64,000 nt of DNA, from assembly GCA_045863235.1 (NCBI GenBank), contig BTUM01000004.1, positions 88,621 through 152,620 of the forward strand. Direction: 5' to 3'. The notes under the pieces are model-generated. The model searched no databases, was not told the DNA's origin, and worked only from the letters and a program-made list of their open reading frames with translations. This DNA is from Candidatus Xenobia bacterium (GTDB lineage Bacteria > Vulcanimicrobiota > Xenobia > Xenobiales > QWHO01). Made by a program: the position numbers and the translations under genes. Positions 24,428 to 61,092 of the stretch are shown in pieces (position 1 is the stretch's first letter; each line of letters opens with the position of its first letter).

Positions 24428-24529
24428 ACGTCGTGAGTCAGCCGATACGCCGCCGCGAAACGCCAAGTCTCGTGGCTGAGTTTCGCCACTCTCCCCTAGA
24501 CCTTGAACGCCATGCTACAATAGAGCTGG

Positions 24530-27192: not shown

Positions 27193-27525
27193 TCAGTCAG
27201 CCAGGATCTTCTGCAACTCCCAGCGATCCAGCCACATGCCCCGGCAGGTGGGGCACACATCCACCTGGGTGGAGCGCCATTCCCACTCCTTCATGACGAC
27301 GTGGCAGCGTGGGCACTTGCGCTGGCCGGGGGGAACCGTCTTGCGCGAGTCATCGAAGGCCAGCGGTTGGAGAGCGTTCTTGGGCAGCGAGGCCAGAGTG
27401 ACCAGCAGCTCCGGCTCACCGTCGTCGAACCAGAGCCCGTCGCACAGCTCGCACTCGTCGAGTACCAGGTCGCCCAATCGAACCTCGCGCAGAGGCACCA
27501 GGCAGGTGGGGCACTCGATGTTCAT
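27193..27525 (-). CDS. Zinc-ribbon protein (TFIIB-type, COG3809-like), last gene of the flotillin operon
   Basis: MNIECPTCLVPL...CELCDGLWFD and a second ribbon CPRCHVVM...CPTCRGMW. Its start overlaps the stop of the giant ATPase gene (ATGA). Confidence 0.65.
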   Translation of the reverse strand: MNIECPTCLVPLREVRLGDLVLDECELCDGLWFDDGEPELLVTLASLPKNALQPLAFDDSRKTVPPGQRKCPRCHVVMKEWEWRSTQVDVCPTCRGMWLDRWELQKILAD

Positions 27526-30500
27526 TCAGGCGACTTCCTGGGAGTTTTGGCTTTGGAGGCAGCCACCTCGGGAGGCGGCTCCTCCAGCGGGCTGAGCGCC
27601 TCCACGCACTCGGTCAGGTTGGTGGCCGCCATCAGGCCGTCGAAGACGCGCACCAGCACCGGATCCATCACCAGAGCCTTGGATTTGGGCCCGCGCACCA
27701 GCTGAGCCAGGGCCTTGAGCTGGGGCACGACGCGCACGAACGAGTCCAGGGCCCCCGGGCCGAGGTTGAGCTGGGGCACCACCTCGGGCGCCAGAACCAC
27801 GGGTTGAGAGGAGGCCACGCCCGCCACGGGAGCCGAAGCCGCCGGCCGCTCGGCCAGCCGGGCCAGAGCCTCGCTCATTTTGTCCAGCACCGGGGAGAGG
27901 TCCACGGGAGCAGCAGGGGCGGCGGCCGCCGCCGGGGGAGCCGAGGAGGCCAGCCGGTTCAAGGACTGCCCCAGCTTCTCCAGCACCGGACCCATGTCCA
28001 CCTGGGCCGGGCGCTGCTCCGCCAGCTTCTCCAGCAGGCCCGACACCGGAGCCGGTTTCTCGCTGGCATACTCGATGCTCTGGGAGATGTCGCCCAGCTT
28101 CTCGGCCAGCACGCTGAGCAAGTTCGAGATGCGCACGGCCGGGTCGTCGTCCTTGCCGCCGGTCATCTGGCGGCGCTGGTAACCGCGCTTGATCTCGTCC
28201 CAGCGGGCCAGTTGCTCGGGACTCTGGCGGCCACGCAGCTCGGCCAGCTTGAGCAGGTTCTGCTCGGCCCCCGTGGTCAGGGTCTGGGACTCGCCCTGGT
28301 AGTGGTCGTCCACCAGGCGCTCGAGCTCGTCCTCGTTCATCACCGACGAGACCTTCTCGGCCAGCTTGTTCATGTTGCGGTAGCTGCCCTGCAGCTTGAA
28401 GGCCGGCTCGGTGCGATAGGCGTCGTCCATGCTGGCGGACAGGATGTACTGCTTGTTGATACGCAGCAGCACGGCCTGGATCTTGAGCAGCTTGGTCAGC
28501 ACCGAGCGTAGCTCTTCCAGCTCGACCGGCGAATAGGAATGGCTGAGCTCGCTGGGGGGGATCATCTCCCCCTGGGCCATGCGCACCAGCTTGTACACGT
28601 CCTCGGGCTCACGCCCCGAAAGCGGTGCCAGCACGGGGTTGGAGGTCAGAGCGTTCTCCAGGTAGCTCAGCTCGAACAGCTCCTCGCGACCCGACAGCAC
28701 GTCGCCCAGGTTGTAGGTGTCGGCGCGGTTGGCCAGCATGTCGGGGATCTGAAAGCGCGCTCCCGACTCGGTGTAAGGGTTGCCGGCCATGCAGACGCAG
28801 AAGCGCTTGCCACGCAGGTCATAGGTGCGTGTGCGACCCAGCCAGACGCCCTCGATCTTGCGCTGGGCGTCGCACAGCGAGATGAACTTCTGCAAGAACT
28901 CGGGATTGGTGTGCTGGATGTCGTCGATGTAGAGCAGCACGTTGTTGCCCATCTCCAGGCCGAAGTTGACCTTCTCGACCTCCTGGCGGGCGGTCACGTT
29001 GGGGGCCTCGTTGGGGTCGAGCGAGCTGACCGCATGGCCCAGCGCCGGCCCGTTCACCTTGACGAAAATGAGGCCCAGCCGGTTGGCGATGTACTCCATC
29101 AGGGTGGTCTTGCCGTAGCCAGGGGGCGAGATCAGCAAGAGCATGCCCATCAGGTCGGTCCGCTTGGTCTCGCCTAGCGAGCCGATCTGCTTGGCCAGGT
29201 TCTCGCCGATGAGGGGCAGGTAGACGTCGTTGATGAGCTTGTTGCGCACGAAGGCGCTCATCACTTTGGGCGTGTATTCGTCCATCCGAAGGCGCGCACG
29301 CTCGCGGGCCAGCACGCCCAGCCGCTTCTCCTGATACGCCCGAAAACCGGGCACGCGCTGGCTGCGGAAGCCCCCCAGCCGGGTCAAGAACTCGTCCAGG
29401 CGAAGCTGCATGACCCGGTTCTGGATGCGCGCGTGCTGGCCCAGCAGGCCCTGAACCGTCGCCGTGGTGGCGGCGCTGACGGTCTCTCGCTCCAGGCCCG
29501 GGGTCAGCAAGAGCACGGCCATCTCTTCTTGCACGTGCTCGGCCCGGCCGGCCTCCTTGAGCCGACCGACGAAGGCTCGCACCCAGGAGAGGGCCAGCTC
29601 GTAGCGGCGGGCAGGATCGGCCTGCAGGGCGACCAGTTGCTCGCTCAGAGCGGTGTAGAGGCGCTGGCCTTCCAGGGCCTTGATGAAGGCGTCGCGCAGG
29701 GCCGCCGCGTCGCCGCTCAGGATGAAGCGGGGCTGCGGCCTGGCCAGCTCGAGCAAGAGGTAGCTGCCTGCCTGCTCGGCTTCCTGAGGCGAGAGCTCGA
29801 GCTTGTGCAGCACGCACAGCTCGCCGATGCGCTCGCCCAGCTCGCGGGCCAGCTTCTCCTCGGCCTCGCTGGGCCCGAACATCTTGCGCATCAAGGCCAG
29901 ACTCTGGGCCTGGCGATGCCAGTGCTCGCCTTCGGCGGCCTGGTTGCTCCAGAAGTAGACGCCGGCCGCCCGGGCGGCCGGCGAGAAGCGCAGCAGGCCG
30001 GCTGAGCTGTAGAGGTAGAGCAAGCTCTCCAGAATCAGGGCCGCGTCGTGGTCGTGAATACCGCGCTCGTAGCCCTCGTCGTAGCGCTCGGCCGCCACCC
30101 CCCGCACCAGCTCGAGCAGCCCCGGGTGCACGTCGCCGTCGGGCCGGGTGGCCCCCGAGCGCAGCGTGTCGTAGAGCTTGCTCATCGAGCCCTTCTCGGC
30201 CTGGCTGAGGATGCTGAAAGCCAGATACTCGCCCCGGTAGACCTGCTCCGTCTCGCTGACCAGCTGCTGCTCCCAGAACTCGCGGGTGGACTCGAAGTCG
30301 CTGTCATGCAGGCTCTGGTAGAAGTCGGTGCCGGTGATGTGCAGGTGCATCACCCCTTCGCGCGGCACCATGGTCAGCTCGACCGCCTCGGTATTGACCG
30401 AGAACTTGTGCCGACCCAGCCGGATGACGTTGGCGCCCTCCTCGTAGATCTCGGTCTTGTCTCGCAGGGTCCGGGTGGACTCCTGGCGGGCCATCTTGAG

Positions 30501-33020
30501 GCGCGAGGCCAGCTCGTCGGCCTTAACCGGATCGCCCAGCTCGCGCAGCTTCTCCTCGATGTCGCGCACCTTCATCACCATCGGGTCGCTGGCGAAGTAG
30601 GTGTTCAGATCGTCAGGCGAGGTCATGGTGCCCGAGCGGCGCACGATGCCCTCCAGAATGCGGTCGGCCGCTCCGATCAGTTGCTGGGCTCGGCGCTGAC
30701 GCTGATCCAACAGCTGCTGGCGCTTGGTGGAGAGGGTCTTGTAGACGTCCTCGCGCTTGGTGGTCAGCTCGCCCATGAACTGCTCGTACTCTCCGAAGCG
30801 AGCCTCGAGCTCCTCGAGCTGCAGCATCAGGCGTGAGAGGGCCTGATCGCACTTTTCGGGCGAGTCGGCCAGGTTGATGGCGCTGGTGACGCTCTGGCCG
30901 AAGAGCTGGAACTGCACCCCGAACTCGGCCACCGACTCCTTCTCGCCCAGCTCCTTGCGGCGGGAAGCCATGAGGGCCCGCACCCGGTTGACCTGGCCGA
31001 GTACTTCGGCGATGCGCTCGAGAATCTGGGTGCGCACGGTGGCATCCTCGATCTTGATGCTGCCCAGCACCTCGGTGAGCAGCTCCAGCCCACTCCCGAT
31101 CTTCTCCAGCTCTTCCACCAGAGGCACCAGCTCGGTGACCTTGGCCACCTTCTCCAGCCCTGAGCCCAGCTCCTCAACCCGCTTGACATAGGGGGCGAAG
31201 GCCTGCTCACCCAGCAGGAACTGAACCGCTCTGGCGCTGATCTGATCGTAATAGCCGATGGCCTCTTGCTCGAGCCGGTTCAGCTCGGCCAGGTCAGCAT
31301 AGCGCATCTCCTTGAGGGTGATCAGATGCCCACGCTGGCGGCGCAGCGAGCCCAGCGCTTCCACATAGGAGTCCACGCTGGTCCAGTCTTCCGGGCGCAG
31401 CGACTTGACCAGGTCGAGCATGGTCTGCTGGGCCTCGCGCAAGGCTTTGAGCGCCTGGCGGCGCAGGGTCTCGACTTTGTCGAACTCCTCCAGCACCAGC
31501 TTGCCGGTCTTGCCGATCTCCTTGAGCAGGGCCAGCACGTTGCCCGACTCCTCGTGGCCCAGCCAGTGGTAGAAGTCCTCGCAGCGGGCCACGGAGGCGA
31601 TCAGGTCCTCGTAGACGGTGTAGCTCGGCCTCTGCTCGTTGACCCGACGGGCGATGGAGAGGCAGTCGGAGATTCCCCGCACGAGATCGGCGTTACCGAT
31701 CTTCTCGAGGTAGCTGCCTGTCTTGCTCACCGCGCTGGCGGCCACGTCGTCGCGCAGGAAGGGGGTGCGCCAGATCTGCATCGGATGCACCCGGGCCGGC
31801 TCCTCGTTCGCCATGCGGAAGACGACGAGCAGGCCATCGGGGTAAAGGCAGTAGCCGTGGCAGTGGATGGGGGGAGCTACCTCCTTGCGGATCAGGTTGT
31901 AGCTCATCAGCGCCGTGTGGCCTTTGTCGAGATGATGGAAGGAGTAGAGAACGTCCTCCCCGTTGGGCGAGCGGATGGCCTTTTCGAGGATCATCCCGTC
32001 AAAGGAGCCCTCGAAGGTGCGCAGGGTTCCCTCCTGCAGGTAGAAGCCGCCTGGGAAGACGATGCCGTGGTCTTCAGGGAGTTGCACGCAGGCCTGCCCG
32101 ATCGCATCGATGCGGTGGACTTCCTTGGTGCGGGTGTTGAAGACCAGGTAACGCCAGACTTGCTCGCGATAGGGCAGGATCTTGAGCAAGATGAGCACGC
32201 CCACTTTGGCATACAGGATCTGAGCGTCCTGCAGCGCCTGGTTGGGATCGTCCACCTTCTCGGAGTAGATCCCCTGGCCGTCCTCGGTGTTGTTCTCGAT
32301 CTTGACGGTCAGGTCGCCCCCCACCGTCTCCACGAACACCTCGTCTAAGATGTTGACGTGGGGGTGGCGCCCGGTCACATGCTGCTCGCGGCTGGTGACC
32401 GTCCACTCGAAGTCGTGGGAGTGAGGGAAAGTATTGTCCTGCTCGCCGCGATTGTCGACGTACTCGGCCTTGCCATCGGGGGAGACCTTCCAGCGCAGAA
32501 CCCGCACGTCGGTGATCTGGCTGCCAATCACGAACACCGCCAGCACCTTGCCCAGAATCTGGCGAACATGCAGCATGCGGGCGTTCTTGTAGTATTTGAA
32601 GAGCTCCTTGAAGTCGCGCTCGAGCAGAGGGTGGTTGAGCATGGAGCCGGGCGCGTCGGGCGCTACCGGCACGAAGTCGTAGCCGCCCTCTTCGGTTCTG
32701 ACGAAGTCGTAGAGCGAGAGCACGTCGGGCAGCGGTGTCTCGGCCTTGCGACCGTACTGGACCTCGTAGCCCACCAGCAGCTGGTTGCCCACCGAGACGA
32801 TGTCGCGCGGCAGGCAGTTCTGCTCGGTGCGGATCTTCTCGTTGCCCACCACAGCCATCTCCATGCCCCCGAACAGAGCCACGCGTTTGGAGTTGAGCTC
32901 CTCCACGCGGTTCTTGAGGACTTTGGCCTGCTCCACCAGGCGGGCGCGCAGAATCTCGTAGGCGCCCTGCTCGATCTGCGGCGGAGCCTCAGGTGGGGTG
33001 GTGGTGACCTCTTCCGCCAT
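27522..33020 (-). CDS. Giant (1831 aa) AAA+-type P-loop ATPase, flotillin-associated, function unknown
   Basis: It starts 3 nt after the flotillin stop. The ATPase core sits near residue 1290: Walker A ISPPGYGKTTLMEYIA, Walker B NVLLYIDDIQH, followed by ...CMAGNPYTE.... It has long N-terminal and coiled-coil regions. Codon usage and composition are consistent with neighbouring genes. Confidence 0.7.
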   Translation of the reverse strand: MAEEVTTTPPEAPPQIEQGAYEILRARLVEQAKVLKNRVEELNSKRVALFGGMEMAVVGNEKIRTEQNCLPRDIVSVGNQLLVGYEVQYGRKAETPLPDVLSLYDFVRTEEGGYDFVPVAPDAPGSMLNHPLLERDFKELFKYYKNARMLHVRQILGKVLAVFVIGSQITDVRVLRWKVSPDGKAEYVDNRGEQDNTFPHSHDFEWTVTSREQHVTGRHPHVNILDEVFVETVGGDLTVKIENNTEDGQGIYSEKVDDPNQALQDAQILYAKVGVLILLKILPYREQVWRYLVFNTRTKEVHRIDAIGQACVQLPEDHGIVFPGGFYLQEGTLRTFEGSFDGMILEKAIRSPNGEDVLYSFHHLDKGHTALMSYNLIRKEVAPPIHCHGYCLYPDGLLVVFRMANEEPARVHPMQIWRTPFLRDDVAASAVSKTGSYLEKIGNADLVRGISDCLSIARRVNEQRPSYTVYEDLIASVARCEDFYHWLGHEESGNVLALLKEIGKTGKLVLEEFDKVETLRRQALKALREAQQTMLDLVKSLRPEDWTSVDSYVEALGSLRRQRGHLITLKEMRYADLAELNRLEQEAIGYYDQISARAVQFLLGEQAFAPYVKRVEELGSGLEKVAKVTELVPLVEELEKIGSGLELLTEVLGSIKIEDATVRTQILERIAEVLGQVNRVRALMASRRKELGEKESVAEFGVQFQLFGQSVTSAINLADSPEKCDQALSRLMLQLEELEARFGEYEQFMGELTTKREDVYKTLSTKRQQLLDQRQRRAQQLIGAADRILEGIVRRSGTMTSPDDLNTYFASDPMVMKVRDIEEKLRELGDPVKADELASRLKMARQESTRTLRDKTEIYEEGANVIRLGRHKFSVNTEAVELTMVPREGVMHLHITGTDFYQSLHDSDFESTREFWEQQLVSETEQVYRGEYLAFSILSQAEKGSMSKLYDTLRSGATRPDGDVHPGLLELVRGVAAERYDEGYERGIHDHDAALILESLLYLYSSAGLLRFSPAARAAGVYFWSNQAAEGEHWHRQAQSLALMRKMFGPSEAEEKLARELGERIGELCVLHKLELSPQEAEQAGSYLLLELARPQPRFILSGDAAALRDAFIKALEGQRLYTALSEQLVALQADPARRYELALSWVRAFVGRLKEAGRAEHVQEEMAVLLLTPGLERETVSAATTATVQGLLGQHARIQNRVMQLRLDEFLTRLGGFRSQRVPGFRAYQEKRLGVLARERARLRMDEYTPKVMSAFVRNKLINDVYLPLIGENLAKQIGSLGETKRTDLMGMLLLISPPGYGKTTLMEYIANRLGLIFVKVNGPALGHAVSSLDPNEAPNVTARQEVEKVNFGLEMGNNVLLYIDDIQHTNPEFLQKFISLCDAQRKIEGVWLGRTRTYDLRGKRFCVCMAGNPYTESGARFQIPDMLANRADTYNLGDVLSGREELFELSYLENALTSNPVLAPLSGREPEDVYKLVRMAQGEMIPPSELSHSYSPVELEELRSVLTKLLKIQAVLLRINKQYILSASMDDAYRTEPAFKLQGSYRNMNKLAEKVSSVMNEDELERLVDDHYQGESQTLTTGAEQNLLKLAELRGRQSPEQLARWDEIKRGYQRRQMTGGKDDDPAVRISNLLSVLAEKLGDISQSIEYASEKPAPVSGLLEKLAEQRPAQVDMGPVLEKLGQSLNRLASSAPPAAAAAPAAPVDLSPVLDKMSEALARLAERPAASAPVAGVASSQPVVLAPEVVPQLNLGPGALDSFVRVVPQLKALAQLVRGPKSKALVMDPVLVRVFDGLMAATNLTECVEALSPLEEPPPEVAASKAKTPRKSPE

Positions 33021-33023
33021 CGA

Positions 33024-35198
33024 TCAGCCCTGAGGCGGGGCCGGACGGGGAGCGCGCGGCGCCACCGGGGCCGCCGGGGCGGCCGGAGGCAGAGCCTCCA
33101 TGCCCAGGCTGCGGGCCAGCTCCATCAGCTTGGCCTGGTCGGTGCCCCCGCTTTTCTTGATGAGCGAAGCCAGCAGCGAGGACACGCTCAGGTTCTTGAG
33201 GTCCTCCGAGCTCATCGAGGGGTTGGACAGGATGTCCTTGAGGTCCTTGGCCAGACTCCTCTCGCCGTTCATGTAGTCGCCCAGCATGGCCTTGGCGGCG
33301 TCAGAGTGCTGCATGAAGCGGTCCATGGACTTACTCATCGAGATGGCCCCGAAGATGCGGTCGAGCATGGCCCCGTCGCCGCCCACGATGTCGATCTTGG
33401 CCGACTTGAAGACCTCGGCCATGACCTTGGCCTGGGCCTCGGCCAGCTCTTTCTGGGTCTTGAGCGACTCCAGCGCGATGATGCGCTGGTTCTCGAGCTC
33501 GAGGCGATACTCTTCGTGGCGCCGCGAGACGTCGTCTAAGGCCTTCATGGCCTTGGCCTTCTCGGACAAACCGGCCGCCTCGGCCAGCAGCTTCTTCTGG
33601 ATGGCCTGGGCGTCGGCCTCGGCCCGGGCGGCGGCCACAGAGGCTTCGGCCATGCCCACTTTGTGGCGCGACTCAGCTTCGGCTTCGGCCTGGGCCTTCT
33701 TGATGGAGGCCTCCACCATTCCCAGCTTCTCGTTGGCCGGCGCCTGAGCTTCCTTGACGCGCACCTCGGCCATGCCCTGCTTCTCGAAGGCCAGGGTCTC
33801 GGCTTCCTGAACTTTGGCTTTGGCCAGGCCCTCGGCCGCTCTCTCAGCCTGAACGCCCTCCGACATGCGCACCTTGGCCTGGGCTTCCTTGTCGGCCGCA
33901 GCCAGCTCAGCCTCGGCCAGGGTCAGGCGCTGCTTGGCCGTAAGCCGGGCCACCGCCTCGGCCGCCTCGGCCTGCTTGATCTGCTGGGTGGCCTGCTCCT
34001 CGGCCCTGGCCTCGGCGGCGATCACGACCGAATCCTTGCTGCGCTTGGACTCTTCCTGCACGCGCAGGGTCTTGATGCGCTCTTCTTCCTCGACCACGTT
34101 CTTCTCCACCGCGATACGCTGGCGAATGACCTCCTGAATCTCCTTGCGCTCTTCCTCGAGGGCCTTCTCCTTGGCGATGCGCATCAGCTCGACCTCGCGC
34201 TCTTGCTCGATGGCCTTGAGGTTGATCTCCTTCTGGGCGATCTGCTTCTCGAGGTTGACCACGCGCTGGCGATTGGCGTTGGCCACCTCGATCTCGCGGT
34301 GCTTGTTCTCCTCCATCACCTGGATCTCGCGTTCGGCCTCGATGCGAGCGGCCTCGGCCTTCTTGCGCTCCTCGGCCTGGATTTTGGCGATCTCTGCCTC
34401 GCCCCGGGCGCGAGCCGACTCGACCTCCAGGGTCTGGCGGGTCTGGGCGTCGGCCTGCAGGCGATCCTGCTCCATGATGATGGCGTTGGCCTCGACGTCC
34501 TGGGTCTTGATGCGCTTTTTCTCCTCGTTGAGCAGGTAGTTGGTCTGCACGCGCTGCTCGTGGGTGATCTCGGTGATCTTGCGAATACCCTCGGCGTCCA
34601 TGATGTTGGTCTCATCGAGCGCCGTCAGGGGCGTTTGCTCGAGGTAATCGATGGCCACGTCCTCGAGCACGTAGCCGTTCAGGTCCTCGCCGATGACACC
34701 GCGCACCATGTCGCGAAACTCGGTGCGGCGGGTGTAGAGCTCGGCGAAGTCGTGGCTCTTGCCTGCCGTCTTGAGGGCCTCGGAGAACTTGGCCTCGAAC
34801 AGGTCCTCCAGGGTGCGCGGGTCGGAGGCCCGGGCGCAACCGAGAGACTGGGCCACTTCGAGCACGTCCTCCACGGTCTTGTTGACGCGCACGAAGAACA
34901 TCACGCGGATGTCGGCCCGGATGTTGTCTTTGCAGATCAGGCCCTCTTTACCGCGGCGATCGATGTCGATGGTCTTGACCGAGATATCCATCATCTCTGC
35001 CTTATCGAACAGCGGCATCACCCGGGCGCCGGTAAAGACCACCTGCGGGTCCTTCTGGCCCTTGCGGTTGATGATCAGCGCTTTGCCCTGCTCCACCCGA
35101 ATGTAGAAGCGGGCCTCGGCCAGCGTCCACACCAGCCACAGAAAGAGCAGCGAGCCCACCAGGCCGCCCCCGATGATGAGCATGGTGATCAGTTCCAC
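33024..35198 (-). CDS. Flotillin (SPFH/band-7 domain plus long flotillin helical repeats)
   Basis: N-terminal TM segment MELITMLIIGGGLVGSLLFLWLVW. The SPFH core is ...RVMPLFDKAEMMDISVKTIDI.... An extended EA-repeat coiled coil follows (AEERKKAEAARIEAEREIQ...). Confidence 0.9.
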   Translation of the reverse strand: MELITMLIIGGGLVGSLLFLWLVWTLAEARFYIRVEQGKALIINRKGQKDPQVVFTGARVMPLFDKAEMMDISVKTIDIDRRGKEGLICKDNIRADIRVMFFVRVNKTVEDVLEVAQSLGCARASDPRTLEDLFEAKFSEALKTAGKSHDFAELYTRRTEFRDMVRGVIGEDLNGYVLEDVAIDYLEQTPLTALDETNIMDAEGIRKITEITHEQRVQTNYLLNEEKKRIKTQDVEANAIIMEQDRLQADAQTRQTLEVESARARGEAEIAKIQAEERKKAEAARIEAEREIQVMEENKHREIEVANANRQRVVNLEKQIAQKEINLKAIEQEREVELMRIAKEKALEEERKEIQEVIRQRIAVEKNVVEEEERIKTLRVQEESKRSKDSVVIAAEARAEEQATQQIKQAEAAEAVARLTAKQRLTLAEAELAAADKEAQAKVRMSEGVQAERAAEGLAKAKVQEAETLAFEKQGMAEVRVKEAQAPANEKLGMVEASIKKAQAEAEAESRHKVGMAEASVAAARAEADAQAIQKKLLAEAAGLSEKAKAMKALDDVSRRHEEYRLELENQRIIALESLKTQKELAEAQAKVMAEVFKSAKIDIVGGDGAMLDRIFGAISMSKSMDRFMQHSDAAKAMLGDYMNGERSLAKDLKDILSNPSMSSEDLKNLSVSSLLASLIKKSGGTDQAKLMELARSLGMEALPPAAPAAPVAPRAPRPAPPQG

Positions 35199-35258
35199 GT
35201 CCCCGAACCTCCCTTACCGTCTCGACAAGCATGGATCGCTTCGCGCCACCGCGAAGCC

Positions 35259-35882
35259 TCAACTCTTTCGCCGCGACTTCACCGGGGCGGCCAGGAATAC
35301 CCCCCGCCCCTCGTCATAGTCAAACAGCAGCACATCGCTTCCTGAGGAAAGCTCTTGCTCGGCATACTGCTCGCCGAGCCGCGCCTCGACCAGGATCTTC
35401 CCGCCGTCTCGAAGCTCCACCGCGCCCACGACGCTGGTGAGGCAGCCCGAGCGCACCCGACCGACTTTGCCCACCAGCGAGCGCCTCCGAGTTGCCATCG
35501 GAGCCTCGCGGCGGGGCACCATCCGGCGGGCCAGCCACACGGCCGGCCAGAGCACCCCCAGCAGCACCCCCAGCAAGACCAGGGAGCCCCAACCAGCCGA
35601 AAGGGGCCCTGCCGAGAGCGAGACCAGGCAGGTCGCCCCCCAGCCCAACAGCGCTACCAACGTCAAAACCGGCGCCAGCGGCAGAGCGGCCAGGCCCAGG
35701 TCCTCCAATAGCCGCTCCAGATGAAGGTCATGCTCGAGGAAGTCCGGGATGCCGTTGTGGTCAAGGTCAGCCGCACCAAGCAGGCCACCGAGCAGCACCA
35801 CCATCCAGTACACGAGCAACAGCGCCAGCAGGCCCGAGAAGATCACCGTCGGATAGGTCGTGACCGTCTGGAGAAGCTCCAC
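35259..35882 (-). CDS. NfeD-family membrane protein (flotillin-associated, C-terminal OB-fold)
   Basis: TM segments are followed by the NfeD beta-barrel tail GKVGRVRSGCLTSVVGAVELRDGGKILVEARLGEQYAEQELSSGSDVLLFDYDEGRGVF. It lies 60 nt upstream of flotillin, the canonical NfeD-flotillin arrangement. Confidence 0.75.
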   Translation of the reverse strand: MELLQTVTTYPTVIFSGLLALLLVYWMVVLLGGLLGAADLDHNGIPDFLEHDLHLERLLEDLGLAALPLAPVLTLVALLGWGATCLVSLSAGPLSAGWGSLVLLGVLLGVLWPAVWLARRMVPRREAPMATRRRSLVGKVGRVRSGCLTSVVGAVELRDGGKILVEARLGEQYAEQELSSGSDVLLFDYDEGRGVFLAAPVKSRRKS

Positions 35883-35903
35883 GTCTCACACCTCCCTGTC
35901 TGT

Positions 35904-35921
35904 CTGTGAGCAAACTCACAT
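35904..35921 (-). promoter_or_regulatory. Perfect CRP/FNR-type palindrome TGTGA-N6-TCACA at the NfeD-flotillin operon promoter
   Basis: cTGTGAgcaaacTCACAt is centred about 30 nt upstream of the NfeD start, just before the SD (cagggagg). It is identical to the CRP-family consensus. Coordinates are +/-2 nt. Confidence 0.45.
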
Positions 35922-36104
35922 TCAGTGTATCAGCTCGGTGGTTTCCACCCGGGGAACAGGCCGACGGACGGTTGCCCTTTCGCCTGGTGGCGTGCTCCTC
36001 CTCGCATCCTGCAGATCACTCGATCTGGACTGACGAGAAGGCTCACGAAGTTTCTGGAAGTCGCGCGGGGGGTCCTGTTGAATTTCCTTCTCGCACGGGC
36101 CCTG

Positions 36105-36719
36105 TCACACGCGGTGGAGGCTCCCGGTGTAACTCCAAAGTCGCGACCAGAACGAGATGCGGACCGGACGCTCGGGCCAGAGAAGCCTGACCACCTCGAG
36201 ATCGCTGTCATCGGGCAGGTAGCTCACCACCAACGCAGCAAATGACTCCCCCTCCCGGGCAGTGCGCCAATCGTCCTGGCTGACCCACAAGAGTCCCTCC
36301 TCGCGAAGCAGCTGGCTCTCTTTTGGACGGATGGTCAGCGAGTAGTAGTCGCGGGTGAAGCGGCCTGCGTGCTCGTTCCAATCCTCTTCTTGATGATGCT
36401 CCCTGGCCACCACGATCCCGGACAGCTCGAGGATGCGACATTCGGGCCGCATCGCCGCCGACGCTCGCGCCCGCCTGCACTCGATGATGACCGCCAGGGC
36501 CAACAGACCCAGGCATAGACCCAGGGCAATCCAACCGCCGCGGGAGCCTTCCCGCACCCACTTGAAACCATGAAAGATGCCTGGTCCGAGATACCACAGG
36601 GAGGCGAGGGCTAGAATGAACGTTCCCTGGCGGCCAGAGCGCCGGTCGCAGCCCCTTTGCATGACGCCAGCGGCTCGCTGATGATCGTGGGGAGAAAACA
36701 GGTAGGGCATCCGGGTCAC
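36105..36719 (-). CDS. Hypothetical membrane protein
   Basis: 204 aa. Two hydrophobic segments (FILALASLWYLGPGIF, WIALGLCLGLLALAVII) and a soluble C-terminal half. No recognisable domain. Confidence 0.45.
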   Translation of the reverse strand: MTRMPYLFSPHDHQRAAGVMQRGCDRRSGRQGTFILALASLWYLGPGIFHGFKWVREGSRGGWIALGLCLGLLALAVIIECRRARASAAMRPECRILELSGIVVAREHHQEEDWNEHAGRFTRDYYSLTIRPKESQLLREEGLLWVSQDDWRTAREGESFAALVVSYLPDDSDLEVVRLLWPERPVRISFWSRLWSYTGSLHRV

Positions 36720-36972
36720 CTCGACTTTCCAAGGATGACCCCGCCTCGGAGCGCTAGACCAATTTGCCCCGGGTGAGCTATGTTACCGAAATGTTAACCA
36801 GATGTCAAGAGTCCCGGGCTGCCTTCTTCAAGCGCTCGAGCTCGACCAGCCGGGTCTGGATGACTTCCAGCGACAGATTGATCCGATCCTGGCCGCAGCA
36901 GCACGGAGGCGTTGTCTCGTCGGGCGACTCCATACTCCCTGAGACAGACCGACAGGCAGAAAAGTTCCCGGT

Positions 36973-39369
36973 TCAGGAACGGCGGCGGAGGCGCACGCTG
37001 CCGACCTGGACCGCTCCCGGCTGCTCGACCACGGCTCCCCCCGGGCCGGTCGGAACCCCACCAAAACCTGCCAACACCTGCTGGCGGGCGGCCAGGGCGT
37101 CCATCCCGCCGTCCTGGAGGCCCTTCAGCTGGCGAAAGAGCTCCACAGCCTGGTCTTGCTTTTCGACCCCGACCAGGTCGAGCAAGTAACGGAAGTCCGC
37201 CATCCCTTCTCCGCGCGAGATCTGGTAGGCGGACAAAGCGGTCTCCAGAGTGGTGCCGCCTTGCTGGCAATCGAGCACCTGCCGCCAGGCCTCTTCGGGA
37301 GAGGTCACAAAGGCCGTCAGAACCGGGTGCACCTGGGCCACCCGGGTCATCGTGCGCAACTCGTCGAGCAACTCTCGCTCCCAGTCCGCAGCGTGGGCCC
37401 GATAGGCCTGCTCGAGAGGCTCGTGCGACAACCCTCCCGCGGTCGAAAGTCGGACGGCCACGGGGAGACACTCCGAGCGCTCAGCCGGGGGGGAGTCAGC
37501 TCGCCCGAACGGCTCGAGCTGCCGCTCGAGCAAGGCGACCCCCAGGTGGTCCCAGAGAAACTCGGCCGCCACTCGCTTTCCCAGGAGCAAGGCCAGGGCA
37601 TCGGGCGCCTGGGCGAGCATGGAGCGATCACGGCAGGCCTCAAAGAGCGCCTCCACCACTTCGGTGGCTTTCTCGGGAGTGAGCTGATCGCTCGGCGGCA
37701 GATTGGCCAGCAGAGCACGAGCCGAGACGGCGGCCTCAGGGTCGGGTCGATAGGCCTTCTGCCAGGCCATCATGGCCGCATCCGCCATCTGGTCGTCCAA
37801 TTCCAGGCCCTGCGACGACTCGAGCAGGCGGGCCACGACCGATCGCTGCTCGTGGCGGCCCAGGGACTGGAGCCTGGCTCCTTCCTGCTCGACGCAGGCC
37901 AGGGCCAGCCAACCCGCCGCCTGACGCGAGCGCGAAGAAAATGCCGCGGTGCCCACCTCGTGGAGCTTGTCGAGCAGGTCGGGGCCGCGCACACCCGGGC
38001 AGCGAAGCAGGGCGGCCAGCTCGTAGAGAGGCGTCAGGTCGTCGGTCACGGGGAGGCGACCCTTCAGCTGCTCGAGGTTCTCGCGCACTACAGGCTCGAG
38101 CTCGCTCACCCGCACCTGAAGAGCGTGGGGAGAGAGTGTGCTCAGCGAGCGCACCAGTGCATCCTCGGCTCCCCCCTGCACGTCCTGGAAAGGACCGCGC
38201 ATGTTGATGCCCAACCCGAACAGGTCGCGGCCGATGGCCAGGCGCTCGGCCATGGGGCCCTCGGCCCCGGCGAGCCGGGTCAGCAGGGCATCCCGCTGGG
38301 GCTCGCGCACCAGCTTGTCCACCTCGTTGCCGAGGTAGTTGCGCTCCTGAAAACGCTCGTTGGTCAAGAGGTCGACCAGCTTCTGCTTGTCGGGCGCCTC
38401 CAAAGGCAAGGAAATGAGCACCGACAGACGGGTGCGATCGACTTTGTCCATGGCCTGGCTGTGCCCGGCGCGAGCGTAGGCAGCCTCGGCGGCCTGCAAG
38501 AGGGCGGCAACCAGCGCCGGCTCCGGCCTGATCAGGCTGTAGTAGGTTTCCAGCCCGTTCCAGCTGCTCATGCCCTTCAGCAGGGCGGTCCGCTCGGAAT
38601 TGGGGTCAGGATCGTGGACCAGGCGGTCCACAAGGGCGGTGGAGAGCGAGACCATCCGGCCCCGGGTGTCGGGCAACTCCTCGCCGGCCAGAGCAGCACG
38701 GTCGGCCTTGCTCAACCCGGCCAGGAACTCGTGCAGGGGCTCGTCCTTGAACAAAGCCGCGGACTCGTCGCCCGGCGCAAAGGGCAGATAGAGCCGGGCC
38801 AACGGGTCGGGGCAGCTGGTTTCGGGCCGACCCAAAGCGAAGTTGGCCGCTCGCGCCACCAGGGGATCGTCTGACTGCGACCAGGCCACCAGAGGAGCCG
38901 CCTCCTCCTCCGAGAGCTGGCTGGCGCGATGGCGCTGCCCAAGCTCGACGAGTCGAGGCAGGATCTCACGGCGCTCAGCCTGACGCAGGCGTCGGGACCA
39001 GTCTTCGGGGGCCGAGGGGTCCTGAATTGCTCCCTCTTCGGACTGCAGCAGCGCTGGGGGAGCCGCGCTCGCGCTGGCCGCGGGCGCGCTCGGAGAGGGC
39101 GCGGCCTTCTCAGGCTTCTCCGCTTTCTGAGGAGCGCAAAGACGGGTCGAGTCGGCCGGTTCTGGAGGGTCGGGGGGCGATGCCGTCAAGGCGGCCGGGG
39201 GCGGCTGCGCGGTGGCTGGCAGGCCTGTGATTGTGACCCCCTGAATGATCATCGCCACTTGTTTCTGGGCGAGGGATTGCTGTCCCTCTGCTGGCTGCCT
39301 GCAACGCCAGGAAGGCGGCGTTGATCGCTTCCGCCAGAGACAAGCCGCCGGGCAGGAGCCCGCCCGCAA
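36973..39369 (-). CDS. Large hypothetical protein (about 760-798 aa)
   Basis: Long Leu/Ala-rich ORF with regular D/E/W content. A likely start is the ATG at 39252 (MIIQGVTITGLPATAQ...). It is divergent from the dihydropyrimidinase gene and has no recognisable domain. Confidence 0.45.
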   Translation of the reverse strand: MRAGSCPAACLWRKRSTPPSWRCRQPAEGQQSLAQKQVAMIIQGVTITGLPATAQPPPAALTASPPDPPEPADSTRLCAPQKAEKPEKAAPSPSAPAASASAAPPALLQSEEGAIQDPSAPEDWSRRLRQAERREILPRLVELGQRHRASQLSEEEAAPLVAWSQSDDPLVARAANFALGRPETSCPDPLARLYLPFAPGDESAALFKDEPLHEFLAGLSKADRAALAGEELPDTRGRMVSLSTALVDRLVHDPDPNSERTALLKGMSSWNGLETYYSLIRPEPALVAALLQAAEAAYARAGHSQAMDKVDRTRLSVLISLPLEAPDKQKLVDLLTNERFQERNYLGNEVDKLVREPQRDALLTRLAGAEGPMAERLAIGRDLFGLGINMRGPFQDVQGGAEDALVRSLSTLSPHALQVRVSELEPVVRENLEQLKGRLPVTDDLTPLYELAALLRCPGVRGPDLLDKLHEVGTAAFSSRSRQAAGWLALACVEQEGARLQSLGRHEQRSVVARLLESSQGLELDDQMADAAMMAWQKAYRPDPEAAVSARALLANLPPSDQLTPEKATEVVEALFEACRDRSMLAQAPDALALLLGKRVAAEFLWDHLGVALLERQLEPFGRADSPPAERSECLPVAVRLSTAGGLSHEPLEQAYRAHAADWERELLDELRTMTRVAQVHPVLTAFVTSPEEAWRQVLDCQQGGTTLETALSAYQISRGEGMADFRYLLDLVGVEKQDQAVELFRQLKGLQDGGMDALAARQQVLAGFGGVPTGPGGAVVEQPGAVQVGSVRLRRRS

Positions 39370-39416
39370 GGTCAGGAAAGCCCCATCACAGCAGCTTTCC
39401 CAAGGAGGACCTTCCG

Positions 39417-40814
39417 ATGCGCATCCTGATCCAGAACGGTGAAGTCGTCACCGCGTCCGACCAGTTCAAGGCCGAGGTGCTCATCGAGGGCGAGAAGGTC
39501 GTAGCCGTGGGCCAGAACCTGGGAGTCACCAACGCCGACAAGGTCTACGACGCCACCGGCCACCTGGTCATCCCGGGAGGCATCGACGTCCACTGTCACC
39601 TGGACATGCCGTTCATGGGCACGCGCAGCAAGGACGACTTCTTCACCGGCACGAGGGCCGCCATCTCGGGCGGCACCACCTCCATCATCGAGTTTTGCAT
39701 CCCGACCAAAGGCGGCACCATCAAGCAGGCGCTGGCTGACTGGGATGCCAAGAGCGCCCCCAAAGCCTGCTGCGACTATTCCTTCCACATGGCCATCGTG
39801 GACTGGAACGAGGGCATCCGCAAGGAGCTCGACGCGGTCTTCGAGCGGGGCATCACCAGCTTCAAAGTATTCACCGCCTACAAGGGCGCCCTGATGCTCT
39901 CCGACGAGGAGATCTTCCGCCTGATGCTGGAGGTCAAGGCCCGAGGCGGCCTGGTCACGGCCCACGCCGTCAACGGTGATGTTTTGACCGTGCTGGCCGA
40001 CAAGTTCGCCGCCGAGGGCAAGCTGACCCCGCACTATCACCCCCTCTGCCAGCCCGGCTACGCCGAGGGCGAGGCCACCGGGCGCATCCTCGAGCTCGGC
40101 AACCTGGCCGGACAACCCGCCTACATCGTCCACATGACCGCCAAGGAAGCGGTGGAGGAGCTGGTGCGGGCCCGCGCTCGCGGCTGGGAGTCGTTCGGGG
40201 AGGTGTGCACTCAGCACCTCACCCTGGACGACAGCCTCTATGATCTGCCCGACTTCGAGGGCGCCAAGTACGTGATGAGCCCTCCCCTTCGCAAGAAGGC
40301 CGACCAGGAAGCGTTGTGGGCCGCTCTGGCCAACGGCACCATCCAGGTGGTGGGCACCGACCACTGCACCTTCGACTTCAAGGGCGGCAAGGACATGGGC
40401 AAGGACGACTTCCGCAAGATCCCCAACGGGCTCAACGGCATCGAGGAGCGGATGAACATGCTCTTCAGCTACGGGGTCAAGTCGGGCAAGATCCCCATGA
40501 CCAGATTCGTCGAGGTGACCGCCACCAACCCGGCCAAGATCTTCGGGCTCTACCCCCAGAAGGGGCACATCTCCCCCGGAGCCGACGCCGACGTGGTCAT
40601 CTACAACCCCAACAAGGAAGGCGTGATCTCCGCCAAGACCCACAATTCGGCCTGCGACTACAACGTTTACGAGGGCTGGAAGATCCTGGGCGCCCCTCAC
40701 ACCGTCTTCGTGCGCGGCAAGGTGGCCTACGAGAACGGCAAGTTCGTGGGCGAGGCAGGCAACGGCAAGTTCCTGGCCCGGGCCGCCGGCAAACCCCAAC
40801 TGGCCATGGTCTAA
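39417..40814 (+). CDS. hydA: Dihydropyrimidinase / D-hydantoinase (cyclic amidohydrolase)
   Basis: ATG at 39417 with SD aaggagg. Metal-binding HxH (GGIDVHCHLDMPF), the carboxylated-Lys motif (ITSFKVFTAYKGALM), later His ligands (AHAVNGD, YIVHMT) and GTDHCTF. Confidence 0.85.
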   Translation: MRILIQNGEVVTASDQFKAEVLIEGEKVVAVGQNLGVTNADKVYDATGHLVIPGGIDVHCHLDMPFMGTRSKDDFFTGTRAAISGGTTSIIEFCIPTKGGTIKQALADWDAKSAPKACCDYSFHMAIVDWNEGIRKELDAVFERGITSFKVFTAYKGALMLSDEEIFRLMLEVKARGGLVTAHAVNGDVLTVLADKFAAEGKLTPHYHPLCQPGYAEGEATGRILELGNLAGQPAYIVHMTAKEAVEELVRARARGWESFGEVCTQHLTLDDSLYDLPDFEGAKYVMSPPLRKKADQEALWAALANGTIQVVGTDHCTFDFKGGKDMGKDDFRKIPNGLNGIEERMNMLFSYGVKSGKIPMTRFVEVTATNPAKIFGLYPQKGHISPGADADVVIYNPNKEGVISAKTHNSACDYNVYEGWKILGAPHTVFVRGKVAYENGKFVGEAGNGKFLARAAGKPQLAMV

Positions 40815-47452: not shown

Positions 47453-47494
47453 CGTTCTGTGAGGCTTTCACGGAGGCGAAACTCCTGCCGAACA
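47453..47494 (+). repeat. Copy A of a repeated ~42-nt intergenic motif (gcgttctgtgaNNNctttcacggaggcgaaactcctgccgaaca)
   Basis: gcgttctgtgaggctttcacggaggcgaaactcctgccgaaca lies about 50 nt upstream of the ATG at 47542. It is near-identical to the copy at about 61036-61079, and a partial copy ctttcacggaggcga is at about 49402-49416. Confidence 0.5.
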
Positions 47495-47541
47495 ACGAGG
47501 CGGTGAGGGAGGGACGTGCCCACCGGCGAACCAGACGATCG

Positions 47542-49395
47542 ATGCAGCTGCGAGAGAGAGCAAGGTGCGGCTATCCCGATGCGATGGCAGCCCTGGCCGA
47601 GGCCGGGGAGGACCTGAGCTTTCTTTCTGCCGAGCAGCGGGCCTATGGCTGGTGCCACACGTTCCACCCACGGTTGGCCGAGGAGCTGGTCGTGTGCCGG
47701 GCGACCCCGCACTGCCTGGTCGTGAGCTCGCTGAAGCTGGGTCAGCCCCTCGAGCTCGACTCTCGGCTCGCTCCTTCCTTCCTGGAGGCCAGCGCCTGCC
47801 CCGATCCAGAGGTCTCGGCCCGGGCCCTGGAGGCCCTGAAAGCCACCGACCTGGTCGACCTCCTGTGCGACTACGCGCTGTCGAGGGACTGCTCGCCGGC
47901 CGCCAGGGAGGTCTGGGTGGCTTTGGGCTTGCTTCCCAGCGCCCCCCATCGGCGCCAGATCTACCTGATCAGGATGGGAAGGACGGACCTTGCCGAGGAG
48001 CTCGATCCGCAGGGCGAGCACCTGACGCTGGGAGCCCTGGAGCTACGCCCCTCCTGGCGCCTGGCTCTGGCGGCCCATTTGCGCGAGCGCGGCCGGGGCC
48101 ACCTGGTACCCCGCATGCTGGGCATCGTCCGCGAGAGAGTGCAACTCGACGGGCCCATGCTGGCCGAGATGCTACGCCAGGCCCAGTTCGAGGCACTGTG
48201 GACTCTGTGCCCCTTCCTGTCTGCCGAGCGCGCCCGGGAGGTCATCCTGGGACTGGCCGAGAGGGGCTTCGCGGGGGGGGCTGACTTCGCGCAAGCCGTG
48301 GACCTGGCCCGGGTCGAGCCGATCCGGCGGCCTGTCTATCGCACGCGCGGGAAATGGGTGGGCTGGGGCGGGCGCCGCCTGCTGGTCAGCCGCAATCGGA
48401 GCGTGAGAGCCATCGATTGGGAGGAGGATCGCGTCGCCTGGCAGGTGGGAGGGAGTTGTCAGGGTGCGGTGCTCTCGCCGGACGGCAGGTGGGCCGCTCT
48501 TTCGCGCCAGCGGCACTACCATCTGCACGATCACGAGGGCCGAATGGTACACGCGAATCGAGCCGTGATGCCCAGTTTCTCGCCCTGCTCGAATTACTTC
48601 GCTTTTCGCGAGGGGCGCTGGCAGCTCTGGCGCCTCTCCCCGCTCGAGCTGCTCGAGTCATCCCAAAACTGCAAGTTCGAGTGGCTGGAGCCAGGCCAGG
48701 TGATCGTCAGCGAGGTGGGAGGACTGCGCATCCGCGATCTGGCCAGCGGGACCACCCGCCTGGAGCCGCCCCTGGCCAGTGAGCCGAACACCTCCAAGTG
48801 GAGGAGGTCTGCCCGGGGCGCGCGCTGGGTGGCCCGCCGAAACCCGCTGATGGCGTTGAGCACGGGCACCCCCGAAAGCCTGATCGTGGAATCGGACGGA
48901 AGCTGCCAGGTCGTGCCGAGCAGGGTCGTGCTGCTCGACGACGAGCGCGTGCTGTGCACCAAAGACTGGAAGATCTGGGACGGTCGCATGCTGCGGCCGC
49001 TCCCCAGGCCAGAGGCGGCTTCGTTTCAGATCGATCCCCGGGGGGCGCGACTCGTGACCGAGAAGGAAGGCTTCACCGCGCTGGTGCGCCTGGGCGACCG
49101 CCTGCCCTACCGAGAGCTGCCCGGCACTTTTCTCGCGATCCATCCCACCGAGCCTTACCTGGCAACTTTGCTTGAGGGAGAGATCTGCATCTGGCAGGTG
49201 CCCCACGAGGTCGACCTGGGTCCTGCGCTGCTCGAGGACAACGCCGAGCGACTCGAGCAACACCTGCGCCCACTGGCCCTCTTTCTCTTGCACCGACGAT
49301 TCCGCCACGAGGTGGCGCTGGAAGAGGGTCTGGAGCTCTCCCCAGCGCACGAAATCCAACTCGACGACGATGAGGCTCGCGTTTATGGAGGGTAA
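47542..49395 (+). CDS. Hypothetical protein with probable beta-propeller (WD40/PQQ-like) C-terminal region
   Basis: First in-frame ATG (MQLRERARCGYPDAMAALAEAG...) of track ORF 46435..49395. The upstream part of that ORF is antisense to mutS2. The C-terminal half has repeated W/G/S beta-strand-like segments (...VAWQVGGSCQGAVLSPDGRWAAL...). Confidence 0.5.
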   Translation: MQLRERARCGYPDAMAALAEAGEDLSFLSAEQRAYGWCHTFHPRLAEELVVCRATPHCLVVSSLKLGQPLELDSRLAPSFLEASACPDPEVSARALEALKATDLVDLLCDYALSRDCSPAAREVWVALGLLPSAPHRRQIYLIRMGRTDLAEELDPQGEHLTLGALELRPSWRLALAAHLRERGRGHLVPRMLGIVRERVQLDGPMLAEMLRQAQFEALWTLCPFLSAERAREVILGLAERGFAGGADFAQAVDLARVEPIRRPVYRTRGKWVGWGGRRLLVSRNRSVRAIDWEEDRVAWQVGGSCQGAVLSPDGRWAALSRQRHYHLHDHEGRMVHANRAVMPSFSPCSNYFAFREGRWQLWRLSPLELLESSQNCKFEWLEPGQVIVSEVGGLRIRDLASGTTRLEPPLASEPNTSKWRRSARGARWVARRNPLMALSTGTPESLIVESDGSCQVVPSRVVLLDDERVLCTKDWKIWDGRMLRPLPRPEAASFQIDPRGARLVTEKEGFTALVRLGDRLPYRELPGTFLAIHPTEPYLATLLEGEICIWQVPHEVDLGPALLEDNAERLEQHLRPLALFLLHRRFRHEVALEEGLELSPAHEIQLDDDEARVYGG

Positions 49396-60938: not shown

Positions 60939-61035
60939 ACCTGGCCTCCTGGCAATCTGATGTTCGTTTCCGGGGAGCACGTTTTTCCGGCGGAAACGAA
61001 AACCTGCCGAACAAAGAAGAGAAAAGCCCACCAGG

Positions 61036-61079
61036 GCGTTCTGTGAAAACTTTCACGGAGGCGAAACTCCTGCCGAACA
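61036..61079 (+). repeat. Copy B of the repeated ~42-nt intergenic motif, containing TGTGA-N6-TCACg
   Basis: gcgttctgtgaaaactttcacggaggcgaaactcctgccgaaca. It is preceded at about 60975-61010 by a hairpin tcgtttccg...cggaaacga. It lies 15-45 nt upstream of the lipoprotein gene start. Confidence 0.5.
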
Positions 61080-61092
61080 CAAGGGGGCAGGA

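Follow-up and report, generated by a model that had tools for sequence, protein, structure and literature searches.

A conserved CRP-type palindrome over the predicted start site of an NfeD-flotillin-AAA operon in Xenobia

The 5′ control region of a four-gene flotillin operon in Candidatus Xenobia bacterium contains a CRP-type palindrome that, judged by comparison with its relatives, is a real, selected and clade-specific element. We consider it fairly probable, taking the explanation as a whole, that the palindrome is an operator for a dimeric helix-turn-helix regulator, probably of the CRP subfamily, which would repress the operon. The case is built on the retention of the half-sites in orthologous loci and on their fixed position relative to a -10-like element.

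Results

A single perfect palindrome upstream of the operon

The window, by which we mean the whole 64-kb stretch of DNA analysed, contains one exact match to TGTGA-N6-TCACA, against 0.01 expected from dinucleotide-preserving shuffles of the same sequence. The match, TGTGAgcaaacTCACA, is a 16-base perfect palindrome, in agreement with the original prediction made from this DNA (TGTGAGCAAACTCACA, here found to be the unique exact match). Its centre, at 35912.5, lies about 30 nt upstream of the GTG start codon (35882-35880) of the first gene, which encodes an NfeD-like protein, and this distance too had been correctly given. The operon is on the minus strand, and in that direction the control region reads GCTGATACACTGAA-TGTGAGTTTGCTCACA-GACAGACAGGGAGGTGTGAGAC-GTG. 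The site had also been described as overlapping both the promoter and the ribosome-binding site. The first part stands, as the palindrome covers the predicted transcription start, whereas the second does not: nine bases separate the palindrome from the Shine-Dalgarno sequence GGGAGG, where GAGGT is invariant across the ortholog alignment.

Matches with up to two mismatches are not in general excess in the window (6 observed, 14.5 expected), and extrapolation from the window shuffles gives about one perfect site by chance in a genome of ~5 Mb. The sequence match alone is therefore little proof, and the decisive evidence is the retention of the palindrome in orthologous loci. Both figures would suit a chance match without function. 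This reading is hardly credible, however, and is already strongly disfavoured by the phylogenetic footprint, in which the half-sites are kept across lineages whose flanks have diverged and whose spacers are all different.

Table 1 Features of the operon and its control region, and versions of the palindrome in related loci
Feature	Position in window	Strand	Basis or sequence
Shine-Dalgarno sequence GGGAGG	35891-35896	-	8 nt upstream of GTG 35882; read from the sequence
CRP-type palindrome TGTGA-N6-TCACA, putative operator	35905-35920	.	sole perfect match in window and kept half-sites
Predicted transcription start	35916-35919	-	~7 nt after the -10 hexamer, inside the promoter-proximal half-site
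Predicted extended -10 element TGaTACACT (TGnTAnnnT)	35924-35932	-	hexamer TACACT at 35929-35924; inferred role
Second palindrome CAGATC-N4-GATCTG	36012-36027	.	~100 bp upstream of the CRP-type site; unique in window
Conserved block CCAGAAACTTCGTGaGCCTT (also written CCAGAAAnTTCGTGnGCCTT)	36038-36057	-	ortholog alignment
Conserved block TTCAACAGGACC, upstream edge of conserved control region	36071-36082	-	present in 6 of 7 aligned sequences
Gene 1, 207-aa NfeD-like membrane protein, C-terminal beta-barrel	35259-35882	-	fold matches of the AF2 model
Gene 2, 724-aa flotillin-type SPFH protein	33024-35198	-	SPFH domain, then long Glu/Ala-rich coiled coil
Gene 3, 1832-aa DUF3686 + DUF7902 + AAA ATPase	27522-33020	-	Pfam
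Gene 4, 110-aa protein with two Zn_ribbon_TFIIB domains	27193-27525	-	Pfam; start overlaps gene 3 stop
Palindrome version, window, L001-L003, L020 and L021			TGTGAgtttgcTCACA
Palindrome version, L004 and L017			TGTGAcataaaTCACA
Palindrome version, L009			TGTGAgtaacaTCACA
Palindrome version, L016			TGTGAtcgataTCACA
Palindrome version, L013			cGTGAaattcaTCACA

The half-sites are retained while the spacer is free

Orthologous loci were picked by protein similarity, and the motif played no part in the choice. A genome collection supplied L001-L008 and exact-protein look-ups of gene 1 homologues supplied L009-L019; a metagenome collection yielded two close relatives only, L020 and L021. The palindrome was found at the same place in every Xenobia-clade orthologue collected, over a range of gene 1 identity of 57-100%. 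Five diverged Xenobia (Eremiobacterota) lineages keep GTGA-N6-TCACA with a different six-base spacer in each; four of them have the exact half-sites TGTGA/TCACA and the remaining one reads cGTGA. Across the five lineages 9 of the 10 half-site columns are invariant, as against none of the 6 spacer columns (binomial P ~5e-4 against a background invariance of 35% in the intergenic alignment). Within the window clade we counted no differences in the 58 nt that span the -10, the operator and the Shine-Dalgarno sequence, compared with 15-22% in the 160 nt upstream, and between clades ~40-50% of aligned positions differ in the flanking intergenic DNA. The right flank of the palindrome, TCACAGAC, shows asymmetric conservation in the alignment.

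The control block stays with the operon although the genes upstream of it vary between lineages. In L004, L009, L013, L016 and L017 the upstream neighbour is a divergently transcribed amidohydrolase gene, whereas the window clade has gained one or two other genes here by insertion, and its amidohydrolase gene is now 3.4 kb off, at 39321-40814. Half-sites that are kept around a free spacer while the neighbouring genes change point to the binding site of a dimeric protein, and neither to an RNA hairpin nor to chance. The palindrome is absent from the distant homologous operons (L006 and L007 from Nannocystis, L005, L018 and L019), which suggests that it was acquired specifically within the Xenobia clade.

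The gene content of the interval upstream of the control block (36105-39369) was compared with that of L002, L003, L020, L004 and L009, and proved variable even at 87-99% identity between relatives. In the window it includes ORFs of 204 and 798 aa; some relatives have one of these and others neither, the amidohydrolase gene then being adjacent. The interval has the appearance of a local insertion hotspot.

The palindrome is anchored to a predicted extended -10 promoter

Directly upstream of the palindrome all lineages carry GCTG(G/A)TAnnCTG, in which TG, TA and CT are invariant (TGnTAnnCT). In every lineage exactly 3 nt lie between the -10-like hexamer and TGTGA, whereas the palindrome stands at varying distances from the start codon (18 to 29 nt). 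This indicates that its position follows that of the promoter rather than that of the ribosome-binding site. The element has the features of an extended -10 sigma-70 promoter, for which no -35 is needed: it matches TGnTAnnnT, it is conserved, and it lies within the range of 20-80 nt upstream of the start codon expected of such promoters. Consensus promoter scans of the window and three orthologues detected no -35/-10 pair.

TGnTAnnnT occurs eight times in the window, and five of these occurrences fall within the 8.4% of the sequence that is non-coding (binomial P ~2e-4). Four of the five are 9-75 nt upstream of gene starts on the same strand. This enrichment upstream of genes makes the motif a credible promoter signal in this organism, and suggests that -35-independent extended -10 promoters may be common in this Xenobia genome. 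Its occurrences, among them those near 24513, 15087, 53182 and 35924, are nearly restricted to the non-coding DNA just upstream of genes.

Given how far start sites usually lie from a -10 element, transcription is predicted to begin within the promoter-proximal half-site (Table 1), which would place the palindrome at about -3 to +13, with its centre at about +5. CRP-family proteins are known to repress when bound at or downstream of the -10, and a palindrome over the predicted start would be in a repressor position, suited to steric repression. The centre is not near -41.5, -61.5 or -71.5, as in activator geometry, a feature that defines the mode of action and not membership of the family; with the start codon only 30 nt from the palindrome centre, class I or class II activation of this operon is ruled out. 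Repression had been suggested earlier, and it is indeed the most plausible mode, given that the palindrome covers the predicted start and follows a conserved extended -10 element at a distance of 3 nt.

The same bases can also be read as a sigma-54 promoter, with CTGGTAT-N4-TTGT as the -24/-12 element, CAGATC-N4-GATCTG as the enhancer, and the TGTGA palindrome overlapping the -12 and modulating it. Four lineages read TGGTAn-N5-(T/C)(T/C)GT with sigma-54 spacing, the CAGATC-N4-GATCTG palindrome is conserved at an enhancer-like distance of ~100 bp upstream, and homologous operons of Nannocystis have a good TGGCAC-N5-TCGC just upstream of gene 1. However, every lineage has GT where the -12 should have its near-invariant GC, and the window clade throughout has GA for the invariant GG, despite the strong constraint on the region there. 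The conserved CTG would fall in the unconstrained spacer of a sigma-54 promoter, but fits a -10 hexamer. On the GG and GC positions we rejected a sigma-54 promoter (GG at -24, GC at -12, 10-nt spacing), and we regard this arrangement as very improbable.

A further alternative is that the palindrome acts in the mRNA, as a 5′ stem-loop of 5-6 bp, extendable by CUG/CAG flanks, that would serve as a stabiliser or as the target of a translational regulator. The hairpin is foldable in all orthologues, at -3.0 to -5.9 kcal/mol (-6.5 to -13 with the flanks), and it falls within the leader or at its border, 9 nt away from the Shine-Dalgarno sequence. Against this, the stem shows no more covariation than shuffles do, and the loop is free to vary. 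Six core stem pairs were tested, of which four never vary. The outermost does not pair in L013; the innermost has one compensatory change, but in 3 of the 7 sequences its bases do not pair. Furthermore, with the predicted start the 5′ arm would be only partly transcribed, and the position of the palindrome is fixed with respect to the -10 element but variable with respect to the Shine-Dalgarno sequence and start codon. A role in the mRNA is thus improbable. An Rfam scan of the leader region gave no match at E up to 5. The palindrome is not followed by a U-tract and hence is not a terminator, and terminator scans of the window and three orthologues found nothing.

A second palindrome and two further conserved blocks

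In the second palindrome, CAGATC-N4-GATCTG, all 12 half-site columns are invariant in the five lineages whilst the centre varies, and it is possibly the site of a second regulator. In some lineages its centre reads aaac and in others gttt, the reverse complement. The TTCAACAGGACC and CAGAAAnTTCGTG blocks are located far upstream of the predicted start, and the genes that neighbour the TTCAACAGGACC block on its upstream side differ between relatives. Together, the second palindrome and the two conserved blocks suggest that the operon may receive at least one further regulatory input.

The sequence points to a probable CRP-family regulator

TGTGA-N6-TCACA is the consensus of the CRP subfamily (CRP, GlxR, Vfr and SyCRP1), and the outermost T is the least constrained position of CRP sites. 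It is also the only half-site position that varies among the Xenobia lineages. The inverted TGTGA/TCACA half-sites are matched exactly in the window, and a spacer fixed at 6 bp but free in sequence is found in all five lineages. The consensus of FNR-type sites, in contrast, is TTGAT-N4-ATCAA, from which the palindrome differs in both half-site and spacing. We therefore rejected an FNR-type site, and the redox/FNR reading that had been proposed for this element finds no backing in the sequence. Given the exact match in both half-sites and in spacing, a CRP-family member is the best single guess for the regulator.

Some results weigh against this identification. Searches with E. coli CRP and FNR (phmmer) found no CRP/FNR-family gene in the 64-kb window, the best E being 1, and Pfam scans of ~45 ORFs returned one XRE-type helix-turn-helix protein only and no CRP/FNR. 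A regulon scan of ~160 kb of clade DNA, made up of the window (~64 kb) and a further ~100 kb of related sequence, found one conserved site; the sole other GTGA-N6-TCAC core, at 61043, is not conserved. The paper on the first cultured Eremiobacterota makes no mention of Crp or FNR.

These results bear on an alternative in which a dedicated local regulator from outside the CRP/FNR superfamily (XRE, MarR, TetR or PadR, for example) binds an operator of this kind over the start site, the match to the CRP consensus then being a coincidence. The zinc-ribbon protein of the operon itself would be one candidate. A single conserved site in all the DNA examined, with no sign of a global regulon, would be expected of such a regulator, as would the lack of a nearby CRP gene in the window; the asymmetric conservation of the TCACAGAC flank is atypical of CRP sites, a small gene encoding two Zn_ribbon_TFIIB domains is conserved in the operon, and other regulator families can evolve the same half-site. 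On the other hand, an arbitrary palindrome would have a prior of only ~1 in 1000 of showing exact CRP half-sites with 6-nt spacing, and no helix-turn-helix regulator gene is linked to the operon in any locus. To our knowledge, Zn_ribbon_TFIIB proteins do not bind palindromes, which counts against the zinc-ribbon candidate. We regard a local regulator as doubtful, but as an alternative to be taken seriously.

The operon adds an AAA ATPase and a zinc-ribbon protein to an NfeD-flotillin pair

The operon consists of four minus-strand genes (27193-35882) that encode an NfeD-like protein, a flotillin-type SPFH protein, a DUF3686-AAA ATPase and a zinc-ribbon protein. It had been labelled an NfeD/flotillin operon from the sequence, and the domain and fold matches of its first two genes support the label.

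The protein encoded by gene 1 is 100% identical to AMXMBFR33_09050. Single-sequence and profile searches with its 207 residues gave no match in Pfam, NCBIfam, PADLOC or the PDB sequences. An AlphaFold model of moderate confidence (pLDDT 69) shows membrane helices and a C-terminal beta-barrel. Its best fold matches are to YbbJ in the E. coli QmcA-YbbJ SPFH-NfeD complex (8z5g, E 2.5e-5) and to the NfeD soluble domain 3cp0 (TM 0.81, rmsd 2.7). NfeD proteins have transmembrane helices and a C-terminal OB-fold; with these fold matches, and with its gene immediately upstream of an SPFH gene, the protein can be classed as NfeD-like on this predicted structure.

Residues 1-230 of the gene 2 protein match Band_7 (PF01145) at 1.1e-11 and 45.6 bits, over residues 34-186, and its homologues, 58-72% identical, carry the names flotillin, YqiK or SPFH. 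With the full-length protein, no Pfam match was obtained even at E=10, and searches of NCBIfam, PADLOC and the PDB sequences were also empty. The long Glu/Ala coiled coil appears to suppress the full-length Band_7 match, which is a pitfall for annotation.

Gene 3 comes after the flotillin gene in L003, L004, L006, L009, L013 and L018, and in L003 and L004 gene 4 in turn follows the AAA gene directly. No papers on DUF3686 turned up in a literature search. This four-gene flotillin/AAA module is a more unusual feature than the operator that would control it.

Look-alike sites belong to a 45-nt repeat

The original prediction had noted that the same architecture recurs in the window. Motifs are indeed present at 61043 and 47458, but they are not the same kind of site: they differ in spacing (N6 and N5) and are part of a lineage-specific repeat. 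The window has GTGA-N6-TCAC at two places, 35906 and 61043. The second occurrence is contained in TGTGAAAACTTTCACG (61042-61057), which has one mismatch to TGTGA-N6-TCACA, while TGTGAggcttTCAC, at ~47458, has an N5 spacer. Both look-alikes lie within a 45-nt repeat, gcgttcTGTGA(N5/6)TCACggaggcGAAACTCCTGCCGAACA, with copies at 47453-47497 and 61036-61080 and a conserved core GAAAC(T)CCTGCCGAACA. There are three occurrences of the core CCTGCCGAACA against 0.02 expected, all of them in intergenic DNA, the third at 61003-61013. The repeat copies are upstream of two plus-strand genes, one at 47542-49395 and the other encoding a HAF-repeat lipoprotein (61123-62364). In three orthologues of the lipoprotein gene (L022-L024; 78%, 68% and 60% identity) neither the repeat nor a palindrome was found upstream. 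We rejected both look-alikes as members of a regulon with the operator, on the difference between N6 and N5 spacing and on the lack of sites in L022-L024. The repeat may serve as a shared promoter or a shared site for a regulator; alternatively, it may be a small repeat element.

A separate AT-rich palindrome, TGTAAaaattgTTACA, was seen at 15115-15130, where the intergenic DNA is unusually rich in AT. One TGnTAnnnT motif overlaps it and another adjoins it on the opposite strand, and it may be a regulator site at a divergent promoter.

Discussion

In the explanation that we favour, a dimeric helix-turn-helix regulator, most probably a CRP-subfamily member of the CRP/FNR superfamily, would recognise TGTGA-N6-TCACA. 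The operator would sit 3 nt downstream of an extended -10 promoter (TGnTAnnCT) that has no -35, so that the bound dimer would block RNA polymerase and keep the NfeD-like/flotillin/DUF3686-AAA/zinc-ribbon operon repressed until the signal of the regulator, possibly an effector molecule, released the operator. Most likely, the operator is an ordinary and already well-known kind of element, here in an unstudied phylum.

CRP-subfamily proteins repress from comparable positions elsewhere: E. coli CRP at cyaA and crp, and Corynebacterium GlxR and Mycobacterium Crp at sites at or downstream of the -10. The Xenobia palindrome resembles these sites in its 16-bp TGTGA-N6-TCACA core, in which GTGA is the most constrained part and the spacer is free, and in its overlap with the predicted -10/+1 region, which by analogy would imply steric repression. 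It differs from them in the conserved 3′ flank GAC, which makes the Xenobia site asymmetric, and in that the ~160 kb of clade DNA showed no further conserved site and no regulon. FNR-type sites belong to the same regulator superfamily and are also dyad-symmetric, but their half-site sequence and spacing set them apart from the Xenobia site. We know of no regulon described for the uncultured Eremiobacterota (Xenobia) lineage to which the host belongs.

The analysis provides a concrete cis-regulatory map for one operon of Xenobia, a bacterial class without a cultured member, which comprises a predicted extended -10 element, a putative operator over the start site and an upstream palindrome. The result also suggests use of the CRP-type recognition code TGTGA-N6-TCACA in Eremiobacterota. 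In mechanistic terms the operator would be conventional, and the value of the map lies in annotation and in guiding experiments, not in a new principle.

A more ambitious reading, to which we give only a slim chance, combines the CRP-type operator with CAGATC-N4-GATCTG and the two further blocks into a dedicated two-input switch, in which a cyclic-nucleotide-sensing repressor would silence an uncharacterised membrane machine until a stress or infection signal arrived. If true, this would provide the first regulatory handle both on the module and, for the uncultured class Xenobia, on how genes are regulated.

Different bacteria appear to control NfeD-SPFH genes by different promoters. The yuaFGI operon of B. 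subtilis is driven by the ECF sigma factor SigW, whereas the Xenobia operon has a predicted extended -10 element and a putative operator. The homologous operon of Nannocystis has a sigma-54-like promoter in place of the extended -10 element and palindrome, which suggests that the two clades wire the same module differently. The Nannocystis TGGCAC-N5-TCGC motif is located at ~5123-5137 of L006 and ~5122-5136 of L007, ~25 nt upstream of the first ATG.

Operons in which an NfeD gene is paired with an SPFH gene are known from E. coli (yqiJK and ybbJ-qmcA) and B. subtilis (yuaF-floT) (PMC2636767; structure 8z5g), and the order in Xenobia, NfeD-like and then SPFH/flotillin, is the same. Unlike the classical pair (PMC2636767), the Xenobia unit adds an 1832-aa DUF3686/DUF7902/AAA ATPase and a double zinc-ribbon protein, and our analysis flags this NfeD-flotillin-DUF3686 AAA-zinc ribbon arrangement as a conserved four-gene module. 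The pairing of flotillin with the AAA protein was also found in Nannocystis and in other MAGs.
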